In this document: positions 10,400 to 23,427 of the stretch, piece after piece
How the letters are laid out: every line of letters begins with the position of its first letter
How positions within the stretch are numbered: the first letter of the stretch is position 1
Assembly (NCBI GenBank): GCA_024275955.1
Contig: JAJRYD010000003.1
Span: 10,471-74,470, forward strand
Origin: Nitrospirota bacterium
GTDB taxonomy: Bacteria > Nitrospinota_A > UBA7883 > JACRGQ01
DNA length: 64,000 nucleotides
Direction of reading: 5' to 3'
Position numbers and translations under genes: made by a program
The notes under the pieces: generated by a model
Database searches by the model: none
Told to the model about the DNA's origin: nothing
What the model saw: only the letters and a program-made list of their open reading frames with translations

Positions 10400-10516
10400 G
10401 GGTTCCTCTAAAAATAAGTGATCTTCTTCATCGGTTTCGGCAATAGTACTAAATCCCCATCTATAATTCGACCAACCAAAAGTCAGAACTTTAAAAATAG
10501 ATTTTTAGAGGTTCCC
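10400..10516. mobile_element. Possible second MITE (family B), 117 bp
   Basis: 16-bp imperfect terminal inverted repeat GGGTTCCTCTAAAAAT / ATTTTTAGAGGTTCCC (2 mismatches); single copy in window. Confidence 0.5.
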
Positions 10517-10792: not shown

Positions 10793-11182
10793 ATGATGGG
10801 TGATATTGATCCAAACTTGCGGGTTCTTGTTGTTGACGATTTTGCTACTATGCGCAAGATCGAGAGAAATATTCTTGGACAGCTTGGCGTCAAAAACGTT
10901 GACGAAGCTGATGATGGATCTACAGCTCTTCCCAAGCTAAAGGCAAACCCTTACGACATAGTTCTTCTTGACTGGAACATGCCTACAATGACAGGTCTTG
11001 AGTTGCTTAAAACAATGCGGGCCGATGACGAGCTTAAAGAGACACCTGTTATCATGGTCACGGCGGAAGCACTGAAAGACAATATAGTTGCCGCCGCGCA
11101 AGCCGGAGTAAACGACTATATCGTAAAACCGTTCACCGCCGGAGCTTTAGAAGAAAAAATCAAGAAAGTCTTAAAGCTTTAA
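10793..11182 (+). CDS. cheY: Chemotaxis response regulator
   Basis: [29 protein letters not shown]: enteric-type CheY. Confidence 0.9.
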
Positions 11183-11422: not shown

Positions 11423-12127
11423 TTACCTGTTTTCAAGTAGCTGTAGGTAAGCCTTTGCTTCCTTAAAATCAGAATTAATATCCAACGCCTTTTTTATATA
11501 GATTGCCGCCTCTTCCTCTTTACCCCATTCCTTATAGGCCCGTGATAAATTGTAGTAGAGTACTTCGTCTTTTGGGTCTATCTTCAACGCCTTGGTATAG
11601 TTCCGTACCGCCTCTTCGAAAAGCTTGTTCTGTCTTAACTCGATACCTAGCTGGTTGAAGGTATGTTTGTTTTCTTCTGTGTATAAATCGGCGTTGTCCG
11701 CCATAGCATCGAAATGTTCAAGAGCTTTATCAGTTTCGCCAAGAGCCATATGGGCCTTGCCTTTTCCGAGGTGGGCCTGAAGGTTTTCACTATCCTCCTT
11801 TAACACCCTTCCAAGCTCAAAAGTAGCGGAGCTGAATTCTTCGTTTTCGAGATGCTTAAGCCCCACCTCCACCATCTTGGCCACCTGCTCCGCCTTTTTT
11901 TCTGCCGCGCTTTTTTTCTTAAACTTGCAGGCTGTATGCTCGGAGCATGCGGTAAACCTTGCCTGAAAGTCATCCATAGAAATTGTTTCCGACGATATCC
12001 CTGTCGTAGTGCCGTCGTTTTTAGGAAACTGAAGGTCTACTCCGCCGCCTCTTTCCTTGACGTAGTAGTGAAGGGCGTCAGCCGATGAACCAGAAGCAGG
12101 TTTTTCAAAATAGAGACCTTCAACCAT
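11423..12127 (-). CDS. TPR protein with unnamed N-terminal domain (CSEHTAC)
   Basis: C-terminal TPRs (KHTFNQLGIELR..AVRNYTKALKIDPKDEVLYYNLSRAY); N-terminal 70 aa similar to C-terminus of 20262 protein. Confidence 0.85.
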   Translation of the reverse strand: MVEGLYFEKPASGSSADALHYYVKERGGGVDLQFPKNDGTTTGISSETISMDDFQARFTACSEHTACKFKKKSAAEKKAEQVAKMVEVGLKHLENEEFSSATFELGRVLKEDSENLQAHLGKGKAHMALGETDKALEHFDAMADNADLYTEENKHTFNQLGIELRQNKLFEEAVRNYTKALKIDPKDEVLYYNLSRAYKEWGKEEEAAIYIKKALDINSDFKEAKAYLQLLENR

Positions 12128-12164
12128 ATCTAATTATTCCCCTCTAAAAATCACGGACTCTGTA

Positions 12165-13826
12165 TTAGCGATTCGCCCTTTTTTGGGCGCCGGTGAATTT
12201 TTTTAACTGAATTTTAAACCACCTGTCGTTCGGACTAAGCTCTAGAGCCTTATTAATCCACTCAATCGCCCCGTCAAAATCACCTTTATTGTAATAAACC
12301 TCCGAGAGGGTATCCATATACCCTGGTAAATCTTTGAAGTACTTCATGGAGGCAAGCGAAAGCTGTTCCGCCTCATCAAGGTTTTTTCCGCCAACCGCGT
12401 ATGCCCATGCCAGCCTGTTTTGTGCCGGAGCGTTTGTCGGGTCTATCTCAAGAATTTTTTTGCAGTACTCTTCGGTCTTTTCATTGTCTCCCATCCGGCT
12501 GTAGGATGTAGCCAGCCCAAGATAGGAACGTATGTTATTAGCACTTTTTGACAAGGCAAGGTTAAAATATTCTATCGCTTTTTTAGTATCGCCGTTAGAG
12601 AGAAAACCAAAAGCACTGTTGTTAATATTCTCCACATGGCCAGAATCCATTCTGCCGACAACACGAAACTCTTTGGCGGCAAGCTGTTCCTGCCCAGACT
12701 TGTGAAGAACATAGGCTAGGGCAAGCCGGTTCTCCATATTTTCCGGATCAAGCTCCAAAACCTGCCTATAGGTATTAATCGCCTTTTGCATCATCTCCAT
12801 GCTCCGCTGAAGGTCGGCAATCACTATAAGGTCTTCACGCGATGGGGGAGTGGAGACCAGCCTCTCATTAAAAAGTGCTAGCGCTTTATCTGTGCTTTTG
12901 TCAGACTTATAAAGCCTAAACAGACGCTCCACCGACAGCCGGCCGCTTCCTGCTCTGTTTACTATCGCCTCTTGTATTCTTATCTGCCCTTCCTTATCCC
13001 CTTTCGAGGAATAGTACTCGAAAAGTATCGCTCCAACCTCTTCACTTTCAGGTTTCATATCAAAATAGGTTTCATAATATGGAATCGACTCTTCTGTCTT
13101 GCCGAGGTTTTCCAGAGTGGTGGCAAGCTTCATTATCACCGCTAAATCTTTCGACTCGGCCTTGCCGGAACTTTTATAGTATTCAAACGCTTTTTTATAA
13201 TTTCCTTCACGGTAAAAGGTGTCGCCCATTTTTAAAATCCTGTCTGGGTTTTCCTTCGAGAAGTAAAGATAAATATCTCTCGATATTTTATGTTCGAGGA
13301 TTTCATTTTTCGATTTATAAACAAAAAATCCGCCGCCGCCCAAAGCGCCAAGAAAGAGCAGAGTGAAAAGGATAGATAGAAACCCCATCCCTCCTTTTTT
13401 CTTCTTTGGAAAACTATTTTTACCGATTGTCTCTGCGTAGTTGTTGCCCAGTATTTCGCTTAAATCTTCGTCGTTACCGTTTGAAGCTGTTTTCTGAGTG
13501 CCAGAAGGCATAACACAGCTTCCCTGAAGGATGGCGCCCTCTTCCGCGACGAGAACAGGAGTGTCGATACTCCCGTTAAGATAACTTTTGTCAAAAATGG
13601 AAATTTTTCTTTCGGCTTTGACGTCGCCCATAATTCTTCCCATATTAAAGAGATTACCGGCATTCACCATAGCCTCGACTTTGCCCAGATTGCCGACGAT
13701 AAGGGTTCCTTCCGTCTGTATCTCCCCTTGAAAATCGCCATCAAAGCGAAGGGCACCCTTAAACTTAAGAACGCCGTTCATCCTTATTCCATCCCCAAAG
13801 TAGGAATTTAACTCCTCTCTCATCAT
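12165..13826 (-). CDS. Bactofilin domain-TM-TPR fusion protein
   Basis: 'GVLKFKGALRFDGDFQGEI..EEGAILQGSCVM' bactofilin pattern; KKKKGG plus hydrophobic helix; TPR array to C-terminus. Confidence 0.85.
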   Translation of the reverse strand: MMREELNSYFGDGIRMNGVLKFKGALRFDGDFQGEIQTEGTLIVGNLGKVEAMVNAGNLFNMGRIMGDVKAERKISIFDKSYLNGSIDTPVLVAEEGAILQGSCVMPSGTQKTASNGNDEDLSEILGNNYAETIGKNSFPKKKKGGMGFLSILFTLLFLGALGGGGFFVYKSKNEILEHKISRDIYLYFSKENPDRILKMGDTFYREGNYKKAFEYYKSSGKAESKDLAVIMKLATTLENLGKTEESIPYYETYFDMKPESEEVGAILFEYYSSKGDKEGQIRIQEAIVNRAGSGRLSVERLFRLYKSDKSTDKALALFNERLVSTPPSREDLIVIADLQRSMEMMQKAINTYRQVLELDPENMENRLALAYVLHKSGQEQLAAKEFRVVGRMDSGHVENINNSAFGFLSNGDTKKAIEYFNLALSKSANNIRSYLGLATSYSRMGDNEKTEEYCKKILEIDPTNAPAQNRLAWAYAVGGKNLDEAEQLSLASMKYFKDLPGYMDTLSEVYYNKGDFDGAIEWINKALELSPNDRWFKIQLKKFTGAQKRANR

Positions 13827-13888
13827 ATCAGCCTATTAGGTGTAAAATTTTAAGTCAAGAGCTGACTTTGACAGCGCAACTCATTATT

Positions 13889-15394
13889 TTATTGTAGGTT
13901 TTTCAACGTAATCTCAAACCTGCCAAGCTGGCCCGAACGCTTCTTTTCAAGCAGAGTGAACTCTCTTGAACTTAGAAACCCAAATAGAATCAATACGATA
14001 ACTACAAGTATGCATGCTTTTCCGGCACTCTTTTTCTCTGGGCCGACCCCTTTTAAAAGAGCTACCACACCTGTTGAAAGCACCATATAGAAAAAAGGCA
14101 AGAAGGGGTAGACCATCCGTGAGAGGGCATAAAAAATAATCGACACGAAAAACGGAATAAGAAGAAGCAGGAGAGGAAGGTATCTTATCGCTCCTTTATC
14201 TTTCATCTTTGTCAGCTGGTAAAAGCCGTAGAGAAAGAGGAGAAGAGCGAGCGAGAGCGCTACCTTGTTTTTTGGCACGAAAGAATCGGCCTTATTTGGG
14301 ATTTCGCCTTCCAGCCCCGCCGGAAAGTTATTCAGAAAAAACCCGTTAGAAAAACCGTTTAGAAATATGCCGGCTTTTTTAGGTAATAGCGATAGTTCCA
14401 TCGGAAGATTCTCTTTGATATGCTTCCACCCCAGCCTGTAACCATCCCTCACCATAGCCAGATGCGACCCGTTGTCTGGCGTAAGGTTTAGGACAGCGCC
14501 ATCTTCTAGTCTCTCTGAAAAATAAGGGGCGTAGGTGCCGGTCGCTTTTTGGTGGTGCCCTTCAAGAAAGTTAAACGGCCCATTGAGTGCCACAGGAACA
14601 AAGGTAGGCAGGTTCGCCTGTGGGTAAGCTTTGTTAAGCTCTTTCATAAAAAAATAGTTCCTTACCGTCCATGGCGTAATCAAAAGAATAAATCCTAAAA
14701 ATGCCGCGGTGAAAATTTTTATCTTCCTCGCGGGGACCCACTCTTTTTTAAACAGCCCAAACATAAAAAAAATAAAGACAGCCAAAAGAAACTCCGACCG
14801 TGAGAGGACGGCGATGGCGGCTGTACAGCCGAAGAAAAATGAAAAAATGATATAGTGCCGGGCCGCTATCGACCTTTCTCTGTAGAGAAATATAAAACAG
14901 AATGTGGAAAGCGAAGAGGTGAATAGATAAATATTCTCGGTATTAAGACCGCCGGTAATGAAAATAAGCGTAAAAGATACAGAACATAAGAAGGCGGTTA
15001 TTAAAGCTGTTTTTTTGTCTAGCAGTTCTCTTGCGGTAAGGTAGATAAAAAGAATGGAAAGAGAGCCGATAACCGCGTAGCAGATTTTTAAGATAAATAT
15101 ATCGTGGCCGAACAGCGATTGAAACGCTATCAGTGCCCATATCGTAAACGGCGGCGGGAATGGGATGTTCATCCCTTTTCCGCTTAGAAAATCATCTGCT
15201 ATCAGCGCGTAATAATCTGCGTCTGAAAAATGCAGGACCGACCCGCTAAAAAACCGCATGCCGAGGATGGAGCTTTTTCCCGCCTCCTCCCAGCCAAGAG
15301 AGCCGAGATGCCAATACCTGTAGAGGAAAGAAAGAATAATTATGGAGAGCAGGCAAGCTATCTCACCGCCTTTAACACCTTTGGGAAAATTCAT
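13889..15394 (-). CDS. Polytopic GT-C fold glycosyltransferase (ArnT/PMT_2-like)
   Basis: 'SDADYY..A..F..G', 'PPP', 'TEN', 'PWTVRNY' motifs, many TMs. Confidence 0.75.
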   Translation of the reverse strand: MNFPKGVKGGEIACLLSIIILSFLYRYWHLGSLGWEEAGKSSILGMRFFSGSVLHFSDADYYALIADDFLSGKGMNIPFPPPFTIWALIAFQSLFGHDIFILKICYAVIGSLSILFIYLTARELLDKKTALITAFLCSVSFTLIFITGGLNTENIYLFTSSLSTFCFIFLYRERSIAARHYIIFSFFFGCTAAIAVLSRSEFLLAVFIFFMFGLFKKEWVPARKIKIFTAAFLGFILLITPWTVRNYFFMKELNKAYPQANLPTFVPVALNGPFNFLEGHHQKATGTYAPYFSERLEDGAVLNLTPDNGSHLAMVRDGYRLGWKHIKENLPMELSLLPKKAGIFLNGFSNGFFLNNFPAGLEGEIPNKADSFVPKNKVALSLALLLFLYGFYQLTKMKDKGAIRYLPLLLLLIPFFVSIIFYALSRMVYPFLPFFYMVLSTGVVALLKGVGPEKKSAGKACILVVIVLILFGFLSSREFTLLEKKRSGQLGRFEITLKNLQ

Positions 15395-15513
15395 CTATTT
15401 CAGCTTGGATGGTTCCTATCGTAGCTACTTTAAAAAAATTCGATTTCCTCTTTATCCTACCGTTAAAAATGGTATAAACACAGACTCTTTATAAATTGGA
15501 TAAGGCGAGGCAG

Positions 15514-16350
15514 ATGAAAGACAACGACATACTTGACCCACGTAAAGGAAATTTTGTGTGCGAAAACCTTGCGATTGAAATGAGCTATCCAAAAACCAAG
15601 CCCGACATAGAGGCTTTTCTCTACTACCTCTACCACGAGGATGTAGAGCTGTTTGTCGACAACTACTACGACTGGTTTCTTTTGCTAAAAGGAAAATGCT
15701 CTAAGCTTGCCAAAAACGGCAACTGTAAAATAAAAGATAGGCAGGCGGACGAATGCACGCAACATGGGCACGAAGTGGAAAGCCTAGAAGATACTGCCAA
15801 GTATCATTTTCGTAACGAATGGGAGCTGGTTCGCTACCTGAAAGAGAACAGACCGGCTCTTTTTAAAAAACTTTATCCAGAGACAAGAAAAATTGCCGCC
15901 CTAAAAAAAGCTCCAAAGCTTAAAAAGCAGAAACAAAAAGCACTTACCCCAGCTCTTGACGATGACCATAAATGCTCAAGCTGTATTTCTTGCTGTAATT
16001 ACCTAAACCTCATCATCGACAAGCCGACAGGAGAAAGCAGGCTCAACTCGATCCTCTGGTACATCTACAGGGAGGGGGTTCATGTTTACCTCGATGTCGA
16101 TGGAGACTGGAGCCTCTACCTAGAGCTCCCCTGTCTGCAACTGGATAAAAACGGCCTATGCCAAATCTACGATCGCCGGTCGTCAATCTGCCGCCAATTT
16201 TCCAGTAGCCACTGCCATGGCAACCAGATGGAAGACTCCATCAGGGAATCGTTTCCCAATGACAGTAAGTTATTGAACTTTATAGCCAAGAAGAGAAAAC
16301 CGCTTTTTAAAAGATTGAACACAAGTCTAAAAAAGCTTGCATCGAGATAG
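15514..16350 (+). CDS. YkgJ/CxxCxxCC cysteine-cluster protein, two tandem modules
   Basis: CSSCISCC..CLQL..CQIYDRRSSICRQF in module 2; module 1 paralogous but lacks the first cysteines. Confidence 0.75.
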   Translation: MKDNDILDPRKGNFVCENLAIEMSYPKTKPDIEAFLYYLYHEDVELFVDNYYDWFLLLKGKCSKLAKNGNCKIKDRQADECTQHGHEVESLEDTAKYHFRNEWELVRYLKENRPALFKKLYPETRKIAALKKAPKLKKQKQKALTPALDDDHKCSSCISCCNYLNLIIDKPTGESRLNSILWYIYREGVHVYLDVDGDWSLYLELPCLQLDKNGLCQIYDRRSSICRQFSSSHCHGNQMEDSIRESFPNDSKLLNFIAKKRKPLFKRLNTSLKKLASR

Positions 16351-16526
16351 AGCTGACCAGTAAGTCAGACCGATTACAGCTATTGCATATTTCAGCTTAT
16401 TCTAACCTATTGCTTTATCTTTACACCCAAATATGTTAGATTCTCTAAAGTGATTTTGAGAACTAGGCGATAAGAATCTTACTAGGCCGATTCTTTTACC
16501 GTCTGTTTTTTGGGGGTGTTGTTATT

Positions 16527-16979
16527 ATGGCACGGTTTTCTTCAGTAGCTTTGGTTCTGGTATTTTTAATAACCGCTTGCGGCGGCGGTGGGGGAGACAG
16601 CACCGGCAGTGATAGCGGCGGGGTAACCGACGCTTCCAGTACGGTAAAAATAACAAGCACAAACCCTGAGGATGGCGCGACCGCCGTAGCGCTTACCGTA
16701 TCCGGTAGCCGCACGCATGTTTATGTCTGGTTTGACGACCTTATCGACACGACTACTCTGACATCTAGTACAGGGTTTACTTTGGACGGCGGGTCAGGCT
16801 CTATCGCCGGAGCAGTTACCACTACAACTGTATCTGGTTCCAAGACCGAGATGCTTTATATACCGACCAGCACGCTTTCAACCTCGACACTGCATACAGC
16901 GACAGTAGCCAGCACAGTTAAAGATACCGGCGGAGCATCGAGAACTGCCGCCTATTCTTGGACATTTACAACCGAATAA
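16527..16979 (+). CDS. Ig-like (Big_5-type) domain lipoprotein
   Basis: LITAC lipobox, Gly/Ser linker, 'TSTNPEDGAT..VKDTGG..YSWTFTT'. Confidence 0.8.
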   Translation: MARFSSVALVLVFLITACGGGGGDSTGSDSGGVTDASSTVKITSTNPEDGATAVALTVSGSRTHVYVWFDDLIDTTTLTSSTGFTLDGGSGSIAGAVTTTTVSGSKTEMLYIPTSTLSTSTLHTATVASTVKDTGGASRTAAYSWTFTTE

Positions 16980-17083
16980 GAACAGCACGAAAAAACGGCA
17001 GACAGCCGGTTGTTTTTAAACTTCACGAAACCTTAAAGTGAACAGAAAATAGATTCGATTATTTTCTTGATTGGTGCTGACTT

Positions 17084-17638
17084 CTAATATTCTGCGGCGA
17101 GAGTGGTCTGCCGGCTTGAGAGCCATTGAAAATCTTTCTCTTTCCCCTCTGGAAGCTTGGTTTTGGCATAGCTCCTCTCGCCAGCCGGAAATGGCCCTTC
17201 TATCTCCATTACATACGGCTTAAATCCACTCTTTATCGGCTTTCCGAATGAAATTCCCTCGATGTCCATTGTGCCGCCGTCCTTGTAGTTAGCGGCACGT
17301 ATCTCTACTCTGAATCTCGATATATCACGGTCTCCTCTATTATTAAAACTACAGCCAAGCATATAGCCTTGGCTAAAAGAGCAGACCTGCCTTGTATATT
17401 TTTTGACATATTCGAGTGCCGTGAGGCTTTCAGCCGAGCTGTCGGTTGTAGAGAACTCTTCATCCACAACTATAGGAGGTTCATCGGGATAGCTGTTAGG
17501 CACATCGTACTGCTGTTTCAAAAGCTGTTCGGAACTTCTTGCGCTATTATTATCGGGGGTGGAGGTAGAGCTAACTCTGCCGGCAAGCTTGTAGGCTATC
17601 GTCAGCGCAATTAGGCAAACAAATAATATTCGTATCAT
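17084..17638 (-). CDS. Hypothetical exported/membrane-anchored protein
   Basis: 184 aa ORF, GAGGA SD, N-terminal hydrophobic segment. Confidence 0.65.
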   Translation of the reverse strand: MIRILFVCLIALTIAYKLAGRVSSTSTPDNNSARSSEQLLKQQYDVPNSYPDEPPIVVDEEFSTTDSSAESLTALEYVKKYTRQVCSFSQGYMLGCSFNNRGDRDISRFRVEIRAANYKDGGTMDIEGISFGKPIKSGFKPYVMEIEGPFPAGERSYAKTKLPEGKEKDFQWLSSRQTTLAAEY

Positions 17639-17861
17639 CAGCTATCCTCTCAGAGATAATTTGGTTTGCAGTATCTAACCCGCCCTTTACATCATTACTG
17701 AGTCAGCAACACTCGGCGCCTATCGGCTATGTTGTTCTCACTATGTAGATATTACCAAGTTTACTGAAGAATATGAAACCAGTGCCTCGCCCACGCTACT
17801 TGCGTGCAGGCGACAGCGATGCGCAAGCAAACTTTTAGGAAATTTTAAGCAGTTTTATTTT

Positions 17862-18029
17862 CCACCAGTGAGTACCGCCCCCACCGGCAAGGTGGTGCGC
17901 ACTGCCGGTCTGCTGTTTATCGTAGCTAGTGTCCCACCGAAGGTGGCAACGGTGCATTGATGCTAAGTTTGGGAACTTTTAGGAAACGATATCTACCACC
18001 AGTGAGTACCGCCCCCACCGGCAAGGTGG
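17862..18029. repeat. Pair of identical 34-bp REP-like palindromic units with a shorter variant between
   Basis: CCACCAGTGAGTACCGCCCCCACCGGCAAGGTGG at 17862-17895 and 17996-18029; CCACCGAAGGTGG near 17934-17946. Confidence 0.8.
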
Positions 18030-18036
18030 CCGCGTG

Positions 18037-18672
18037 CTACGGCTTGAAACGGTTTTTAAGTTCAGTCAGTATTTTTTCTGGCGGGATATCGTGCGCGGTG
18101 AGCGCGACCATCATATGGAAAAGGAGGTCGGCCGCTTCGTAGACTATCTCTTTCTCATCGTTATTTTTGCAGGCCATTACAAGTTCGACTGCTTCCTCGC
18201 CTATTTTTTTTAGGTAGGCATTTTCCCCTTTTTTGAAAAGGGAAGCGGTATAGGAACCTTCCGGCAAATCTTTTTTCCTCTGCTGTAGCACCTGATAAAG
18301 GCGTGCAAGCAGTTCTTCGCTGTCTGCCGGCGCCGGCTTTGTAAGCTCGTCACCATCAGCTATTTCCCTAAACCAGCAGGTTTCACTACCTGTGTGGCAT
18401 GCCGGCCCTTTAGCCTCTACGGTTATCAAAAGGGTATCGGCATCGCAGTCGTATTCCATCTTTGCTACTTTTTGCGTGTTGCCACTTTCTTCGCCTTTCT
18501 TCCATACCTTGCCACGCGAGCGTGAGAAAAAATGCGTGAAGCCTGTTTTCCTTGTCATCTCTATCGTTTCCGGGGTCATCCATGCCATCATAAGAACTTT
18601 TTTCGACTTTGAATCCTGCACGATAGCGGGGATCAATCCCTTTCCGTTGAATTTCAGTTCTATTTCGCTCAT
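18037..18672 (-). CDS. hisIE: Bifunctional PR-AMP cyclohydrolase/PR-ATP pyrophosphatase
   Basis: [37 protein letters not shown]. Confidence 0.96.
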
Positions 18673-19424
18673 ATTCTTACAGGTACCCCTTTGTCTGCCA
18701 GATAGCTTTTCACTTCGCCGATTGTATGCTCACCGAAATGGAATATGGAAGCGGCCAGAGCGGCATCTGCTTTCGCCTCGTTAAACCCTTCGTAAAAATG
18801 CTTGAGCGCTCCCACGCCTCCAGAGGCGATGACAGGTATATCGACCGCTTCACAAACGGCCCGTGTCAGTTTAATATCGTACCCTTCTTTAGTGCCGTCC
18901 CTATCCATGCTTGTAAGAAGTATTTCGCCGGCGCCGAAATCGCGCATTTTTTTACACCAGCCTATAGCCTCGATGCCTGTACCGTTTCTCCCTCCGTGAG
19001 TATAAACCTCAAACTGCTCGCCAGACCATTTCGCGTCAACCGCCACTACTATACATTGCGTGCCGAATTTGAGAGCGGCCTGTTTTACAAATTCGGGGTC
19101 TTTGATGGCGGCGGTATTTATCCCTACCTTGTCGGCACCGGCTTTTAGAAGGCTACGGATATCATCAAGAGTCCGTACGCCACCGCCAACGGTAAGCGGC
19201 ATAAAAATCTGCTCGGCGGTTCTCTCTACGACATCTATGATGGTGTTTCGGTTGTCGCTGGAGGCGGTAATATCGAGAAACGTAAGCTCGTCCGCGCCCT
19301 GCTTATCGTAGATTGCCGCCTGCTCGACAGGGTCGCCGGCATCTATAAGGTTAAGAAAGTTTATCCCTTTTACCACTCTGCCGTCCTTAACGTCGAGACA
19401 TGGAATTATTCTTTTTGTCAGCAC
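18669..19424 (-). CDS. hisF: Imidazole glycerol phosphate synthase cyclase subunit
   Basis: [26 protein letters not shown]. Confidence 0.98.
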
Positions 19425-20137
19425 TGAAACTCTTTCACCGCCGCCGCGAGATCTATAGCTTTTGTGTAAAGCGCTTTGCCTATAATAGCTCCGCTTACTC
19501 CCTCTATTTTGGAAAGAGCCAAAAGGTCATCGCTGGAAGATACTCCGCCGGATGCTATTAACGGAAATGGAGAAGCGAGGGCCATCTCTTTTATCGCGTC
19601 GATGTTTACTCCCTGCATCATTCCGTCGCGCGATATGTCGGTGAAGACTACCGCGGCAAGGGGCCAGCTTTTTAGTTTTCCCATAAGCTCTTTGCCTGTA
19701 AGCGTGGATGATGTTACCCATCCGTCGCCTGTTGCCATATTTTCTTTCACATCAATACCGGCTACTACCTTGTGTCGATATTTTTCGGCAATAGCGCGCG
19801 CGCTGTCTGAGTCTTTTAACAAAAGCGAGCCGATAACAATCCTGCTTACCCCCGCGTCGAAATAAGCGGCGGCGGTAGAGATGTTTCTTATCCCTCCTCC
19901 AAGCTGTATAGGAGTTTTGACCGCCTTACAGATATCTTTTACCAGCTCCCCGTTTTTCGGCAGACCTTCAAACGCTCCGTCTAGGTCTACTATATGAATA
20001 AGCTCGGCCCCGCCCTCTTCCCACTTTTTTGCCTGCTCGACAGGGTTGTCGGAAAATACGGTTTCCCTCTCCATATCACCTTGAATAAGACGGACGCAAC
20101 GCCCGCCTTTTAAATCTATTGCCGGTATTATTTGCAT
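19418..20137 (-). CDS. hisA: ProFAR isomerase
   Basis: [29 protein letters not shown]. Confidence 0.97.
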
Positions 20138-20261
20138 CGCAAGATTCTACACCTCTGGATGCAGGTTTACCAGTACGGTATGCGCTATAACAGCCAAAGG
20201 GCTCTCCGAACGGTTAGCCGGCATACTAAGCTGAAAAAATTTAGAAAATAGATTACGACGA

Positions 20262-21191
20262 TTATTTAGCGTTTTTGAGAATCTGGCATAGATGCTCCGT
20301 GCAAAGAAAGAACGAGTGCATAAACTCATGTCTAGGTATAACCTTTGCTTCCAAATTAGTTTTATCGCCTTTAGCATTCAGGTACGCAAGACGAACCTTA
20401 TCTTTCCCCTCTACCTCCTCTGCCCAGTAGCAGTTTTCGCCGCCGCCGATAACATTTACCTTTTCGTGGTACTGCCCGTTTATCTTGCCGTCCACAAGAG
20501 TAGCGGTCGGCTCGTCGCTTAAAACCTTCGCGCCGGCAGTGCTGGAATGAAAAGATGCTCCGCCGCCGGCACCTTTTGCAAGGTTTTCCTTAGAAACAGT
20601 AACTACCTTCTGTGGCTTTTCCGGTTCGGCAGGTTTAGACGATTCGTTTACCAGCTTTTCCAACGCCTTTAGCTCGGCCGGGGAGCGCTTTGTTTGTTTC
20701 TTTTCCACGACTGTCTGCATCTCAAACGGGTTTGACCCGCCTCCCATGCTAAAGCTTTGGATAATCGGCTCAGCTTTTCCCGATAACGCTATAGCTATTT
20801 TTTCTTTAAAGTCGGACTGTTTGAACGGTTTTATAAGGTAGGCGGTCGTCCCTGCTTTTGAGGCCATCATAAAACGGGGCTGGTGCTTGGGGTCAGCTAT
20901 AACAAGAATGCCGTACCTGCCGGAATATCTCTGTTTAAAACTTTTTATAAACGGCAGGTAGCCTTTAGAAGGGGTGTCCCAATCTATAATTAAAAGATCG
21001 ATCCCGAGCCTCGGCGTAGCCGGCCCAAACGCCATTGCCGATTTATCTACATTCTTCGATACCTCGGCGTCAAACTCTGCTTTAAGGCCTACGGAAATGA
21101 CATCGGCATACCCCGACTTTCTGCACATAATATCGACAATATGGCGAACCTTTTCATCATCAATAAAAACCAGAATTTTTTTGTTGCTAAT
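20262..21191 (-). CDS. Receiver-domain protein with unnamed C-terminal domain (CTEHLC); probable ATT start
   Basis: Frame extends 21 codons upstream of 21128 (ISNKKILVFIDDE = REC beta1) to ATT 21191, 7 nt after AAGGAG; in-frame TGA two codons further upstream; LLIIDWD and KPF motifs. Confidence 0.75.
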   Translation of the reverse strand: MSNKKILVFIDDEKVRHIVDIMCRKSGYADVISVGLKAEFDAEVSKNVDKSAMAFGPATPRLGIDLLIIDWDTPSKGYLPFIKSFKQRYSGRYGILVIADPKHQPRFMMASKAGTTAYLIKPFKQSDFKEKIAIALSGKAEPIIQSFSMGGGSNPFEMQTVVEKKQTKRSPAELKALEKLVNESSKPAEPEKPQKVVTVSKENLAKGAGGGASFHSSTAGAKVLSDEPTATLVDGKINGQYHEKVNVIGGGENCYWAEEVEGKDKVRLAYLNAKGDKTNLEAKVIPRHEFMHSFFLCTEHLCQILKNAK

Positions 21192-21202
21192 CTCTCAGCT
21201 CC

Positions 21203-22363
21203 TTAAAGGATTGCCGTAGAAGAAGCCAAGATAGCCAAAACCTTTTTCCGGTCATCTTCCTGTTGACTTAGTGTCAATGTTAACCTCAAACGAGACGAGC
21301 CTTCAGGAACCGTCGGAGGACGTATAGCCTGAACATAGACCGCTTCGCTCCAAAAACTGTTCTCAAGTTCCAATGCCGTACCAGCATTACCTGTAACTAT
21401 AGGTATTATATAACTTTTTGACCCGCTAGCAATATTTAACTCTGCCATTTTTGAATTAAAGTCTTTCACTATTTCCAAAAACCGCTCTCTTTCTTTGGTA
21501 AAACTGCCAAGAATATCAACAGCGGTAACAGCTCCCATCGCTATTGCCGGGGGGATGGCGGTAGAATAAATAAAGCTTCTTGCATGGTTTATAAGATAGC
21601 TGTAAAGCTCTGCCGAGCCGCACGCGAAAGCACCGGAAACACCAGCCGCCTTACCTAACGTGCCGACCAAAACATCAATTTTACCTTCATTTTCAAATAG
21701 TTCTGGTGTCCCCCTGCCGTTTGCCCCAAGCACGCCAAAAGCATGGGCATCGTCTAGGTATATTCTGGCATCGTACTTTTTGGCTAGTCCGCAGATATCC
21801 GGCAAAGGTGCTATATCTCCATCCATGCTAAAAAGGCCATCGGTGATAATCCACCTCTCTCTGGCGAAACGATACTTTACGAGAAGCTTCTCCAGCGCCT
21901 CCATATCGAGGTGCCGGTACCGCCTGAATTCGGCTTTGGAAAGGAGACATCCATCAACCAGCGAGGCATGGTTAAGCTTGTCGCAAAGCAAAATATCGCC
22001 TTTGCCGGTGATTGCCGGAATAATGCCGATGTTTGCCGCGTAGCCGGAATTAAAGAGAAGCACCGCCTCTGCCTGCATAAAATTTTTGAGCTTTTCTTCC
22101 AGAATAGAGTGCGCCGATGTTGAACCAGAAACAAGCCTCGACGCGCAGGCACCAGCGCCGAACCTTTCGACAGCACCGCGCATCGCGTTTTTCAGTTCAG
22201 GGTGCTGGGAAAGCCCCAAATAATCGTTGGAACAAAAAACAAGATATTCCCTGCCGGCAAGCTTCGCTCTGCCGCCGCGCGACCCTTCAAAAACTTTTAT
22301 CTCTCTAAAAAGGTTTTCGCTTTTTAGTTTTTCGATTTTGTCCGTAATTCTTTTTTTAAACAT
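21203..22363 (-). CDS. bioF: 8-amino-7-oxononanoate synthase
   Basis: SNDYLGL, NHASLVDG, FSMDGD, DDAHAFG, TLGKA, IRPPTVP. Confidence 0.93.
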   Translation of the reverse strand: MFKKRITDKIEKLKSENLFREIKVFEGSRGGRAKLAGREYLVFCSNDYLGLSQHPELKNAMRGAVERFGAGACASRLVSGSTSAHSILEEKLKNFMQAEAVLLFNSGYAANIGIIPAITGKGDILLCDKLNHASLVDGCLLSKAEFRRYRHLDMEALEKLLVKYRFARERWIITDGLFSMDGDIAPLPDICGLAKKYDARIYLDDAHAFGVLGANGRGTPELFENEGKIDVLVGTLGKAAGVSGAFACGSAELYSYLINHARSFIYSTAIPPAIAMGAVTAVDILGSFTKERERFLEIVKDFNSKMAELNIASGSKSYIIPIVTGNAGTALELENSFWSEAVYVQAIRPPTVPEGSSRLRLTLTLSQQEDDRKKVLAILASSTAIL

Positions 22364-22413
22364 AAAAAGAGACTGCCCGAAAAATGCCGTAGACGCTTTA
22401 CAGCTTTAAAAAA

Positions 22414-23427
22414 TCAGGAACCAACCTCAAGCCCGAGGTCTTCGACCATTTTGATATCGTCCTCCGCTTTTCTGCCTCTGGTGGTAAGGTAGTTGCCAAG
22501 CATCGTCGAATTCGCCCCCGCAAAGAAAATGAACGATTGAACATCGCGAAGGTTTACTTCCCTTCCGCCTGCCACTTTTAAATCTCTCTCCGGCAGAAAA
22601 AGGCGATAGACGGCGATGATAGAAAGAATTTCGAGAGGAGTAAGCGGTTTCGCATTTTCCAGCTTGGTGCCTTCTATCGGGTTAAGAAAATTTAGCGGTA
22701 TCGACCCGACTTCCAGCCTTCTTAGCTCAACAGCCATCTCTATCCTTTGCTCGTTATTTTCGCCCATGCCGAAAATACCTCCACTGCATAGGCGCAGTCC
22801 GGCGTTTCTTGCCGCCTCTATCGTGGCGACATTCTCGTCGTAGGAACGGGTGGAACATATATTGGGATAAAAGCTTCTTGCTGTTTCAAGGTTATGGTGA
22901 AACTCCTGCAGTCCCGCCTCCTTTAAGGCGACCGCCTCTTCCTCGTTAATAACGCCAAGCGACGCACAGCGGTGAATGCCTACCTTGCCTTTCATCTCTC
23001 TTATAGATTCGAGAATCAGTTCAAAATCTCCAGCCCTGTCGTTGGGCCCTTTGCCGCTGGTAACGATGCCGAATTTCATCGCGCCATTGCCTATCGCCTC
23101 ATTGGCGGCCTTAACTATCTCTCCGCTTTTCATCAATCCGTACTCCGGCACATCGGCATCATGGCCGGAATACTGCGGGCAAAAAGCGCAATCCTCCGAA
23201 CAAAGCCCCGACCTTGCGTTGACGATGGAGCAGAGTGAAATGCTGGCTCCTTTATGCTTTCTGCGCACGGCATCGGCGGCGGCGATAAGATCCATTATAT
23301 TTTCCGGCGGAAGTTCGAGTAACTCTATAGCCTCCTGCTCGGAAACAGGGTCAAGCCTCAACGCTTTTTCCCTGCACTCTTCGATAAGCCTGCGGCCGGT
23401 AGAGACCGCTACACCAGAACCGCTCAT
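22414..23427 (-). CDS. bioB: Biotin synthase
   Basis: CSEDCAFCPQ radical SAM motif, HHNLET, AGGRE, GNYLTT. Confidence 0.96.
   Translation of the reverse strand: MSGSGVAVSTGRRLIEECREKALRLDPVSEQEAIELLELPPENIMDLIAAADAVRRKHKGASISLCSIVNARSGLCSEDCAFCPQYSGHDADVPEYGLMKSGEIVKAANEAIGNGAMKFGIVTSGKGPNDRAGDFELILESIREMKGKVGIHRCASLGVINEEEAVALKEAGLQEFHHNLETARSFYPNICSTRSYDENVATIEAARNAGLRLCSGGIFGMGENNEQRIEMAVELRRLEVGSIPLNFLNPIEGTKLENAKPLTPLEILSIIAVYRLFLPERDLKVAGGREVNLRDVQSFIFFAGANSTMLGNYLTTRGRKAEDDIKMVEDLGLEVGS

Follow-up and report, generated by a model that had tools for sequence, protein, structure and literature searches.

An undescribed domain, predicted to be a small β-barrel, is shared by TPR and receiver proteins and tracks flagellar genes in Nitrospinota and Thermodesulfobacteriota

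Whether a TPR protein and a receiver protein encoded near each other carry the same domain, and what such a domain would do in both, is the question raised by a 64,000-nucleotide stretch of DNA (hereafter the window; positions 10,471 to 74,470 of contig JAJRYD010000003.1, assembly GCA_024275955.1, GTDB phylum Nitrospinota_A). Gene A (11423..12127, minus strand), delimited by its open reading frame, 96 homologues and an AlphaFold2 model with a predicted local distance difference test score (pLDDT) of 94, encodes 234 residues, of which the first ~72 have no family match and the remainder form TPR repeats. Gene B (20262..21191, minus strand, stop codon at 20262–20264), delimited by its translation, 27 homologues and their alignment, encodes 309 residues, namely a receiver, a Pro/Ala/Lys-rich low-complexity linker of ~95 residues and a C-terminal part of ~80 residues that has no family match either. 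A sequence-only reading of the window had aligned the N-terminus of A with the C-terminus of B by eye, and proposed a mobile and unnamed domain, metal-binding or redox-sensitive, that would define a signalling pair; as outcomes speaking against it, it had named a similarity lost on shuffling, unlike predicted folds and a match to a characterised domain. None of these three was obtained, as the similarity was significant on shuffling, the predicted folds were alike and no characterised domain was matched. The analysis confirmed where the two segments lie, that one heads a TPR protein while the other ends a receiver protein, and that A has a cheY-like gene beside it.

The two segments are homologous, being copies of one domain of ~75 residues, hereafter domain X. 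Smith-Waterman alignment of the segments (BLOSUM62, gap penalties −11/−1), which reproduced the alignment made by eye, scored 52 versus a mean of 22.4 (standard deviation 4.1) for 2000 shuffles of the B segment, none of which reached 52 (z = 7.2), and the score observed for the whole proteins was reached by 8 of 500 shuffles. Homologue searches at E ≤1e-3 yielded 96 sequences for A and 27 for B, of which 57 and 27, respectively, were aligned, and hhalign paired residues 1–72 of A with residues 234–307 of B over 69 columns of the two family profiles (probability 96.9%, E = 1.6e-10). Domain X of A thereby spans 11912..12127 (minus strand; residues 1–72, MVEGLYFEK...CSEHTAC), and that of B, as also indicated by its AlphaFold2 model and by invariant columns, 20271..20492 (minus strand; residues ~234–307, INGQYHEK...CTEHLC). 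In the AlphaFold2 model of full-length A, X has strands at residues 3–8, 19–26, 29–35 and 41–50, a helix at 51–57 and a strand at 58–60; the model of the B domain alone (pLDDT 82) has strands at 11–16, 26–32, 38–44 and 50–59, a helix at 60–66 and a strand at 67–69. The order of elements is identical in both, and X is accordingly modelled as a small β-barrel of four antiparallel strands followed by a helix and a short fifth strand. The resemblance could instead have been a matter of chance or composition with no common domain behind it, and BLASTP with composition-based statistics did not report an A–B alignment at all (best match elsewhere, E = 1.2). Such an explanation is refuted by the shuffles, by the hhalign match between independently built profiles and by the same order of predicted secondary structure in the two models, while a single profile also retrieves both families together with further architectures; the probability left to it is negligible.

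Domain X belongs to an undescribed family, new to the libraries searched, whose predicted small barrel may be SH3/Tudor-like. A Pfam scan (E ≤10) of the 26 X sequences in an alignment named A3 yielded one-member matches to six unrelated families (best E 0.009) and no family matched by more than one; NCBIfam gave no match on X, and among PDB sequences the X profile matched only a thermonuclease (E = 0.69). Foldseek against the PDB returned 0 matches at E ≤1e-3, with weak PWWP, SH3 and PH matches, and a full VIA-align pass found a single chain at Z ≥5; no chain reached Z ≥8, the level below which, according to the tool, a match may mean only a common arrangement. The best chain was a tandem Tudor (8ye8_B, Z = 6.0, root-mean-square deviation 3.6 Å, 69 residues aligned), followed by Tudor, SH3, KOW, PWWP and DUF1653 barrels at Z ≤4.6. 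A feature search of the ESM Atlas with X gave nothing at ≥0.9, the ten X clusters looked up were all unnamed or 'hypothetical', and a full-text literature search, with supplements outside its scope, found no paper naming domain X or proteins A and B. Barrels of the Tudor, PWWP, KOW and UvrD/Mfd/CarD types resemble the modelled X in their ~60–80 residues and their 4–5 antiparallel strands, and would share with it the use as add-on interaction modules, but have no sequence relationship to it in the Pfam, NCBIfam and PDB profile searches; X differs from Tudor-type barrels by an additional C-terminal helix and strand, by a putative Cys/His clip in one subfamily, and by being acidic to neutral rather than basic.

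Two better-known families were considered and rejected. PilZ, the c-di-GMP (cyclic dimeric GMP) receptor domain, is like X a small β-barrel joined to motility regulators, as in flagellar brakes such as YcgR, and a PilZ-bearing Atlas cluster (rank 11, score 0.85, under the 0.9 level) was the single lead to it; none of the 26 X sequences matched PilZ (PF07238) even at E ≤10, and the RxxxR and D/NxSxxG motifs of PilZ were not visible in the A and B family alignments. MucBP repeats (PF06458) were among the low-ranking matches of the X profile, but hhalign of A3 against P0139 gave only 26%, with an alignment that crosses a repeat border; the Big_9, DUF7507 and Flg_new repeat matches of the X profile are probably β-hairpin or repeat artefacts as well, MucBP being the one that was checked by hhalign.

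Searching 1.84 billion proteins with the A3 profile retrieved 89 cluster representatives at E ≤1e-3 (31 at E ≤1e-10), and from the Pfam matches of 37 of them and the reading of 17 sequences, several architectures were distinguished, in agreement with the claim of a mobile unnamed domain. These are X-TPR (the A type), receiver-X (the B type, also found in the divergent P0166 and P0170), a receiver followed by four tandem X copies, each with its own Cys triad (P0124, 607 residues), PATAN/DUF4388-X (P0150, hhalign 97.8%), coiled coil-X (P0141 and P0161), two X copies (P0144 and P0155), and X alone in proteins of 77–150 residues. In genome contigs, X-TPR proteins occurred in Nitrospinota and in Thermodesulfobacteriota, including Desulfomonilia, Syntrophaceae, Desulfarculia and Pseudodesulfovibrio, with X at the protein N-terminus in 78 of 80 loci. 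Receiver-X proteins with a source name came from Nitrospinae records only.

The distribution bears on the proposed signalling pair, in which X would be a homotypic pairing domain through which A and B bind each other. A-type and B-type frames, typed by open-frame length, co-occurred in 20 of the 25 Nitrospinota genomes with X and were both missing from 8 others, 18 loci being checked by tblastn; B-type X grouped with the Nitrospinota A type in a FastTree tree of 45 non-redundant sequences, a hint only given the short alignment; and the proteins with two and four X copies are also consistent with self-association. However, Thermodesulfobacteriota genomes widely carry X-TPR without a receiver-X partner and mostly in a single copy, a common motility regulon would explain the co-occurrence equally well, and A and B stand in different operons 8 kb apart. 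We therefore regard the dedicated A–B pair of the sequence-only reading as unlikely.

The CxEH(x1-2)C pattern on which that reading had been built is present in A (CSEHTAC) and B (CTEHLC), but is not a signature of the X family: its Cys pair is missing from nearly all deltaproteobacterial X-TPR proteins, which otherwise keep X, and many B homologues have Y, D, E, S or Q where the His would stand. The Cys and His residues were counted in 212 aligned X instances from 198 proteins. Where the C-terminal Cys pair was present (87 instances), the position on strand β-2 was His in 47, Cys in 39 and another residue in 1; where it was absent (125 instances), the same position was His in 7, Cys in 0 and another residue in 118. 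In the patterns printed, instances with the β-2 His (A type) had a further His inside the Cys pair in 43 of 47, and those with the β-2 Cys (B type) had HxH on strand β-1 in 34 of 39. Four Cys/His residues thus covary and are gained or lost as a block, as C2H2 in Nitrospinota A, as C3H in B and as none in deltaproteobacterial forms, although the instances are related and stand for few independent events. Two complementary four-ligand sets at equivalent positions are the pattern expected of a structural zinc site, and the candidate ligands are H20, C61, H64 and C67 in A, and H242, C254, C297 and C302 in B. Such a site would clip the C-terminal helix to the barrel by tetrahedral coordination in Nitrospinota-type X, using His of β-2, Cys, His and Cys in A, and His of β-1, Cys of β-2, Cys and Cys in B. 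A zinc clip of this kind, specific to the Nitrospinota-type lineage, is likely, the set being restricted to its subfamilies, and metal binding, if real, would be a lineage-specific addition that does not define X; the metal-binding claim thus keeps its ground for the Cys pair as part of a covarying set, and loses it for most deltaproteobacterial members.

The same residues could serve as a sensor, either with a redox-active metal or through a reversible disulfide (CxxxxC), that switches the output of A and B by oxygen or redox state, as had been part of the original idea. The block-wise covariation of the set fits this, and a C-x4-C spacing is compatible with a redox pair, but the complementary C2H2 and C3H sets resemble structural zinc more than a disulfide switch, and the cluster is missing from 125 of the 212 instances, including nearly all deltaproteobacterial X-TPR proteins, so that sensing through it cannot be the common function of the family. 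A redox role found no specific support, and we consider it decidedly unlikely.

The surroundings of X indicate a tie to motility. Domain X is almost confined to bacteria with flagella, and it tracks flagellar genes both by neighbourhood and by presence and absence. FliG, flagellins and many proteins of the CheW/CheA type are encoded in the window's own genome. Convergent with A lies a gene at 10793..11182 (plus strand; Pfam Response_reg E = 1.6e-31, 109 bits) which scored 173.5 bits against NCBIfam CheY (NF007901), under the cut-off of 189, and which, given this score and the strong Pfam receiver match, is termed a CheY-like single-domain response regulator. A gene of 76–86% identity to it is convergent with A in 8 of 9 Nitrospinota loci from different genera, the other neighbours varying, and the same CheY was found in 9 of 14 Nitrospinota-type loci of the genome contigs, some of which repeat genomes of the nine-locus set, while several of the other five are contig ends or paralogues. 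In 11 deltaproteobacterial species, X-TPR is the last gene of the order CheR-CheD-HDOD-CheY-CheX-CheB-FliL-A, which was verified by Pfam in one locus (L062, where A starts 4 nucleotides after fliL) and is based on BLAST clusters in the other ten; around the X-TPR genes of Pseudodesulfovibrio and Desulfarculia no consistent context was seen. In one locus (L016, G015:C4, 6084–6437), from a genome whose reported completeness is 100%, the CheY-like gene beside A is broken off by a stop behind codon 103, and may be a pseudogene or carry a sequencing error.

Of 33 Nitrospinota genomes, 23 had both X and FliG_C and 6 had neither, with X only in 2 (87% and 91% complete) and FliG only in 2, and among 81 genomes of the Thermodesulfobacteriota class around one deltaproteobacterial carrier, the corresponding numbers were 33 with both, 40 with neither, 2 with X only and 6 with FliG only. 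The two genes were thus concordant in 29 of 33 and 73 of 81 genomes, and four further X carriers all had FliG. In four Nitrospinota genomes lacking both X and FliG, bioB and bioF, behind which B stands elsewhere, were still adjacent, and B was missing downstream, its place being taken by GatB, a thiamine pyrophosphate (TPP) enzyme or unknown open reading frames. The bioF homologue of one genome without flagella has an internal TAG (G031:C3:8913-10043).

The receiver of B (20781..21188, minus strand; residues 2–137, with a ~22-residue insertion) scored 19.1 bits against Pfam Response_reg (PF00072), under the cut-off of 30.2, but its family matched a CheY alignment by hhalign at 99.1% (E = 7e-19, 120 columns), which places it among the receivers, and several B homologues pass the Pfam cut-off (e.g. 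P0125, E = 3.9e-11). D70 and K121 of B are invariant in 27 sequences and align with D60 and K112 of the CheY-like protein of the window, the equivalents of CheY D57 and K109. The acidic pair for Mg2+ (CheY D12/D13) is not kept, most members reading DKD, EKD or D(A/S/G)H and the window protein IDD; in the majority of the window's family, Lys takes the D13 position (DKD or EKD). Nor is the switch Thr (CheY T87) kept, its position reading I, V or A. CheY D13K is active without phosphorylation, and with neither the D13 nor the T87 equivalent kept, B appears to be an atypical receiver, possibly a pseudo-receiver or one that is phosphorylation-independent. Response regulators in which a low-complexity linker joins the receiver to a small C-terminal region for targeting, such as RomR of Myxococcus, have the layout of B and, like it, a motility setting; B differs from regulators of this type in that its receiver lacks the D13 and T87 equivalents and its C-terminus is predicted to be a folded barrel that is found in other architectures.

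B also has an unusual start. From its first ATG, the frame would encode only 288 residues (20262–21128), whereas it is open upstream to an in-frame TGA at 21195–21197, and the residues gained there (I-S-N-K-K-I-L-V-F-I-D-D) are strand β-1 of the receiver. No ATG, GTG or TTG occurs between the upstream stop and β-1 in the window and seven loci of its family; instead these have a conserved Ile codon (ATT, ATA or ATC) 6–7 nucleotides after a Shine-Dalgarno-like sequence, a codon that directly adjoins the bioF stop or shares nucleotides with it (ATAG in four of the loci). In the window, ATT at 21189..21191 (minus strand), the only plausible start that keeps β-1, is the probable start codon, preceded by 7 nucleotides by the Shine-Dalgarno sequence AAGGAG (21199..21204, minus strand), which overlaps the bioF stop TAA (21203–21205). 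B orthologues in other classes of the phylum start with ATG. Because of the non-AUG start, many database entries for B begin inside the receiver. The bioB-bioF pair (21203..23427, minus strand), identified by tblastn across Nitrospinota loci, lies directly upstream of B on the same strand, and B follows bioF on the same strand in 9 of 9 Nitrospinota loci, with bioB upstream in 8 (in L033 only bioF was scored by tblastn). This arrangement suggests that translation of B is coupled to that of bioF by termination-reinitiation through the non-AUG start, which would keep the output of B low.

The position in the biotin operon leads to another possible role, namely that X binds nucleic acid or RNA polymerase and that B is a transcription regulator, perhaps of the bio operon. 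DNA-binding response regulators usually consist of a receiver with an output domain C-terminal to it, the link to bioF holds in all nine loci, and Tudor, PWWP, KOW and UvrD/Mfd/CarD-type barrels are among the weak structural neighbours of X. Those neighbours all lie within the range of a common arrangement, however, and binding to nucleic acid is made less likely by the neutral to acidic character of X (net charge −10 to +2, not above zero in 22 of 26 members); the same X heads TPR scaffolds and follows PATAN and coiled-coil modules, and B is missing exactly where flagella are missing, while bioB-bioF persists. We hold this role to be very improbable.

The evidence is best accommodated if X is a protein-docking, i.e. 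adaptor, module, a role suggested by analogy with other small barrels, by which the TPR scaffold A and the atypical receiver B, the latter probably independent of phosphorylation, would be recruited to one and the same flagellar or chemotaxis partner. The C-terminal part of A is a TPR domain (11432..11908, minus strand; residues 74–232): the Pfam matches of A begin near residue 85 and are all to TPR models (TPR_1, E = 1.9e-14, and its relatives), the AlphaFold2 model has 9 helices there, and Foldseek matched it to MamA, PilF and consensus TPR proteins over ~150 residues. MamA and PilF are TPR scaffolds like the C-terminal 160 residues of A, but lack an N-terminal X, the likeness being confined to the repeats. 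B probably arose when an A-type X was joined to a receiver in Nitrospinota. Taken together, a docking module that recruits A and B to a common motility partner, with a zinc clip added in one lineage, B formed by fusion, and low-level coupled translation of B, is a reading to which we give an even chance of being right.

Several observations weigh against it. The neighbours of A in its largest deltaproteobacterial group, of Desulfomonilia type, are the housekeeping genes proC, coaE, rnpA and yidC, and B stands in a biotin operon rather than a motility operon. Related genomes are not independent and their kinship inflates the X–FliG counts: positives and negatives alternate in the list of 81 genomes in a way that suggests two clades and perhaps very few independent events, and the Nitrospinota genomes provide only ~2 independent joint absences (one genome, G011, and a group in the family f8). 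Loss of motility takes many signalling genes with it, and the correlation therefore fails to identify the flagellum in particular as the target. Lastly, X has a fold without a clear relative, its best structural match (Z = 6.0) lying within the common-arrangement range, and the term 'adaptor' is therefore drawn by analogy. A bolder version of the docking reading, which we regard as a long shot, would have the zinc-clipped X define, in Nitrospinota and Thermodesulfobacteriota, a new accessory layer of flagellar control, in which A and a 'locked', D13K-like B bind the same component of the motor or a chemoreceptor, or each other, and the level of B is set by termination-reinitiation at bioF; if true, motility behaviour would be tied to expression of the biotin operon.

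The finding overturns no current view, and the metal-binding reading is plausible for one branch of X only. For family curators, X offers a clean domain, with 89 representatives in at least six architectures whose current annotation goes no further than 'TPR protein', 'response regulator' or 'hypothetical'. A and B become candidates for accessory proteins of the flagellum, and the motility apparatus of the two phyla to which they belong, one of them being the main group of marine nitrite oxidisers, has hardly been studied; the presence of the X family in culturable Pseudodesulfovibrio makes the prediction open to genetics. The swap between C2H2 and C3H ligands would be a neat example of an existing fold acquiring a metal site, and the conserved non-AUG start of B at the bioF stop is a separate and testable case of translational coupling.

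The other neighbours of A in the window include a bactofilin-TPR gene (12165..13826, minus strand; Pfam Bactofilin E = 7.9e-22, with TPR models), which precedes A by 37 nucleotides on the same strand, probably in a common transcript; a gene of this kind lies just ahead of A within the window's taxonomic family, and is next to A in L021-L023, L035, L037 and L039. Its product of 553 residues has an N-terminal bactofilin domain, a hydrophobic stretch and many TPR repeats. A third copy of X in the window's own genome is carried by a paralogue of A, A', on another contig (C49, L003 at ~1420–2574), with a long acidic tail and a CSNHKC motif, and orthologues of A' were found in 6 other Nitrospinota genomes. 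A' seems to have no ATG ahead of its domain X and sits downstream of a GGDEF gene; GGDEF genes also occur near A in two loci (L113 and L088), but the neighbour is not kept in the six orthologous A' loci and a link to c-di-GMP was dropped. Upstream of the bactofilin-TPR gene, an ArnT/PMT-like membrane glycosyltransferase is encoded at 13889–15394, and a further gene at 15496–16350 (plus strand) encodes a 284-residue protein of apparently two tandem Cys-rich halves, the second of which matches the Pfam family CxxCxxCC, a putative zinc- or iron-chelating domain (E = 3.1e-8).

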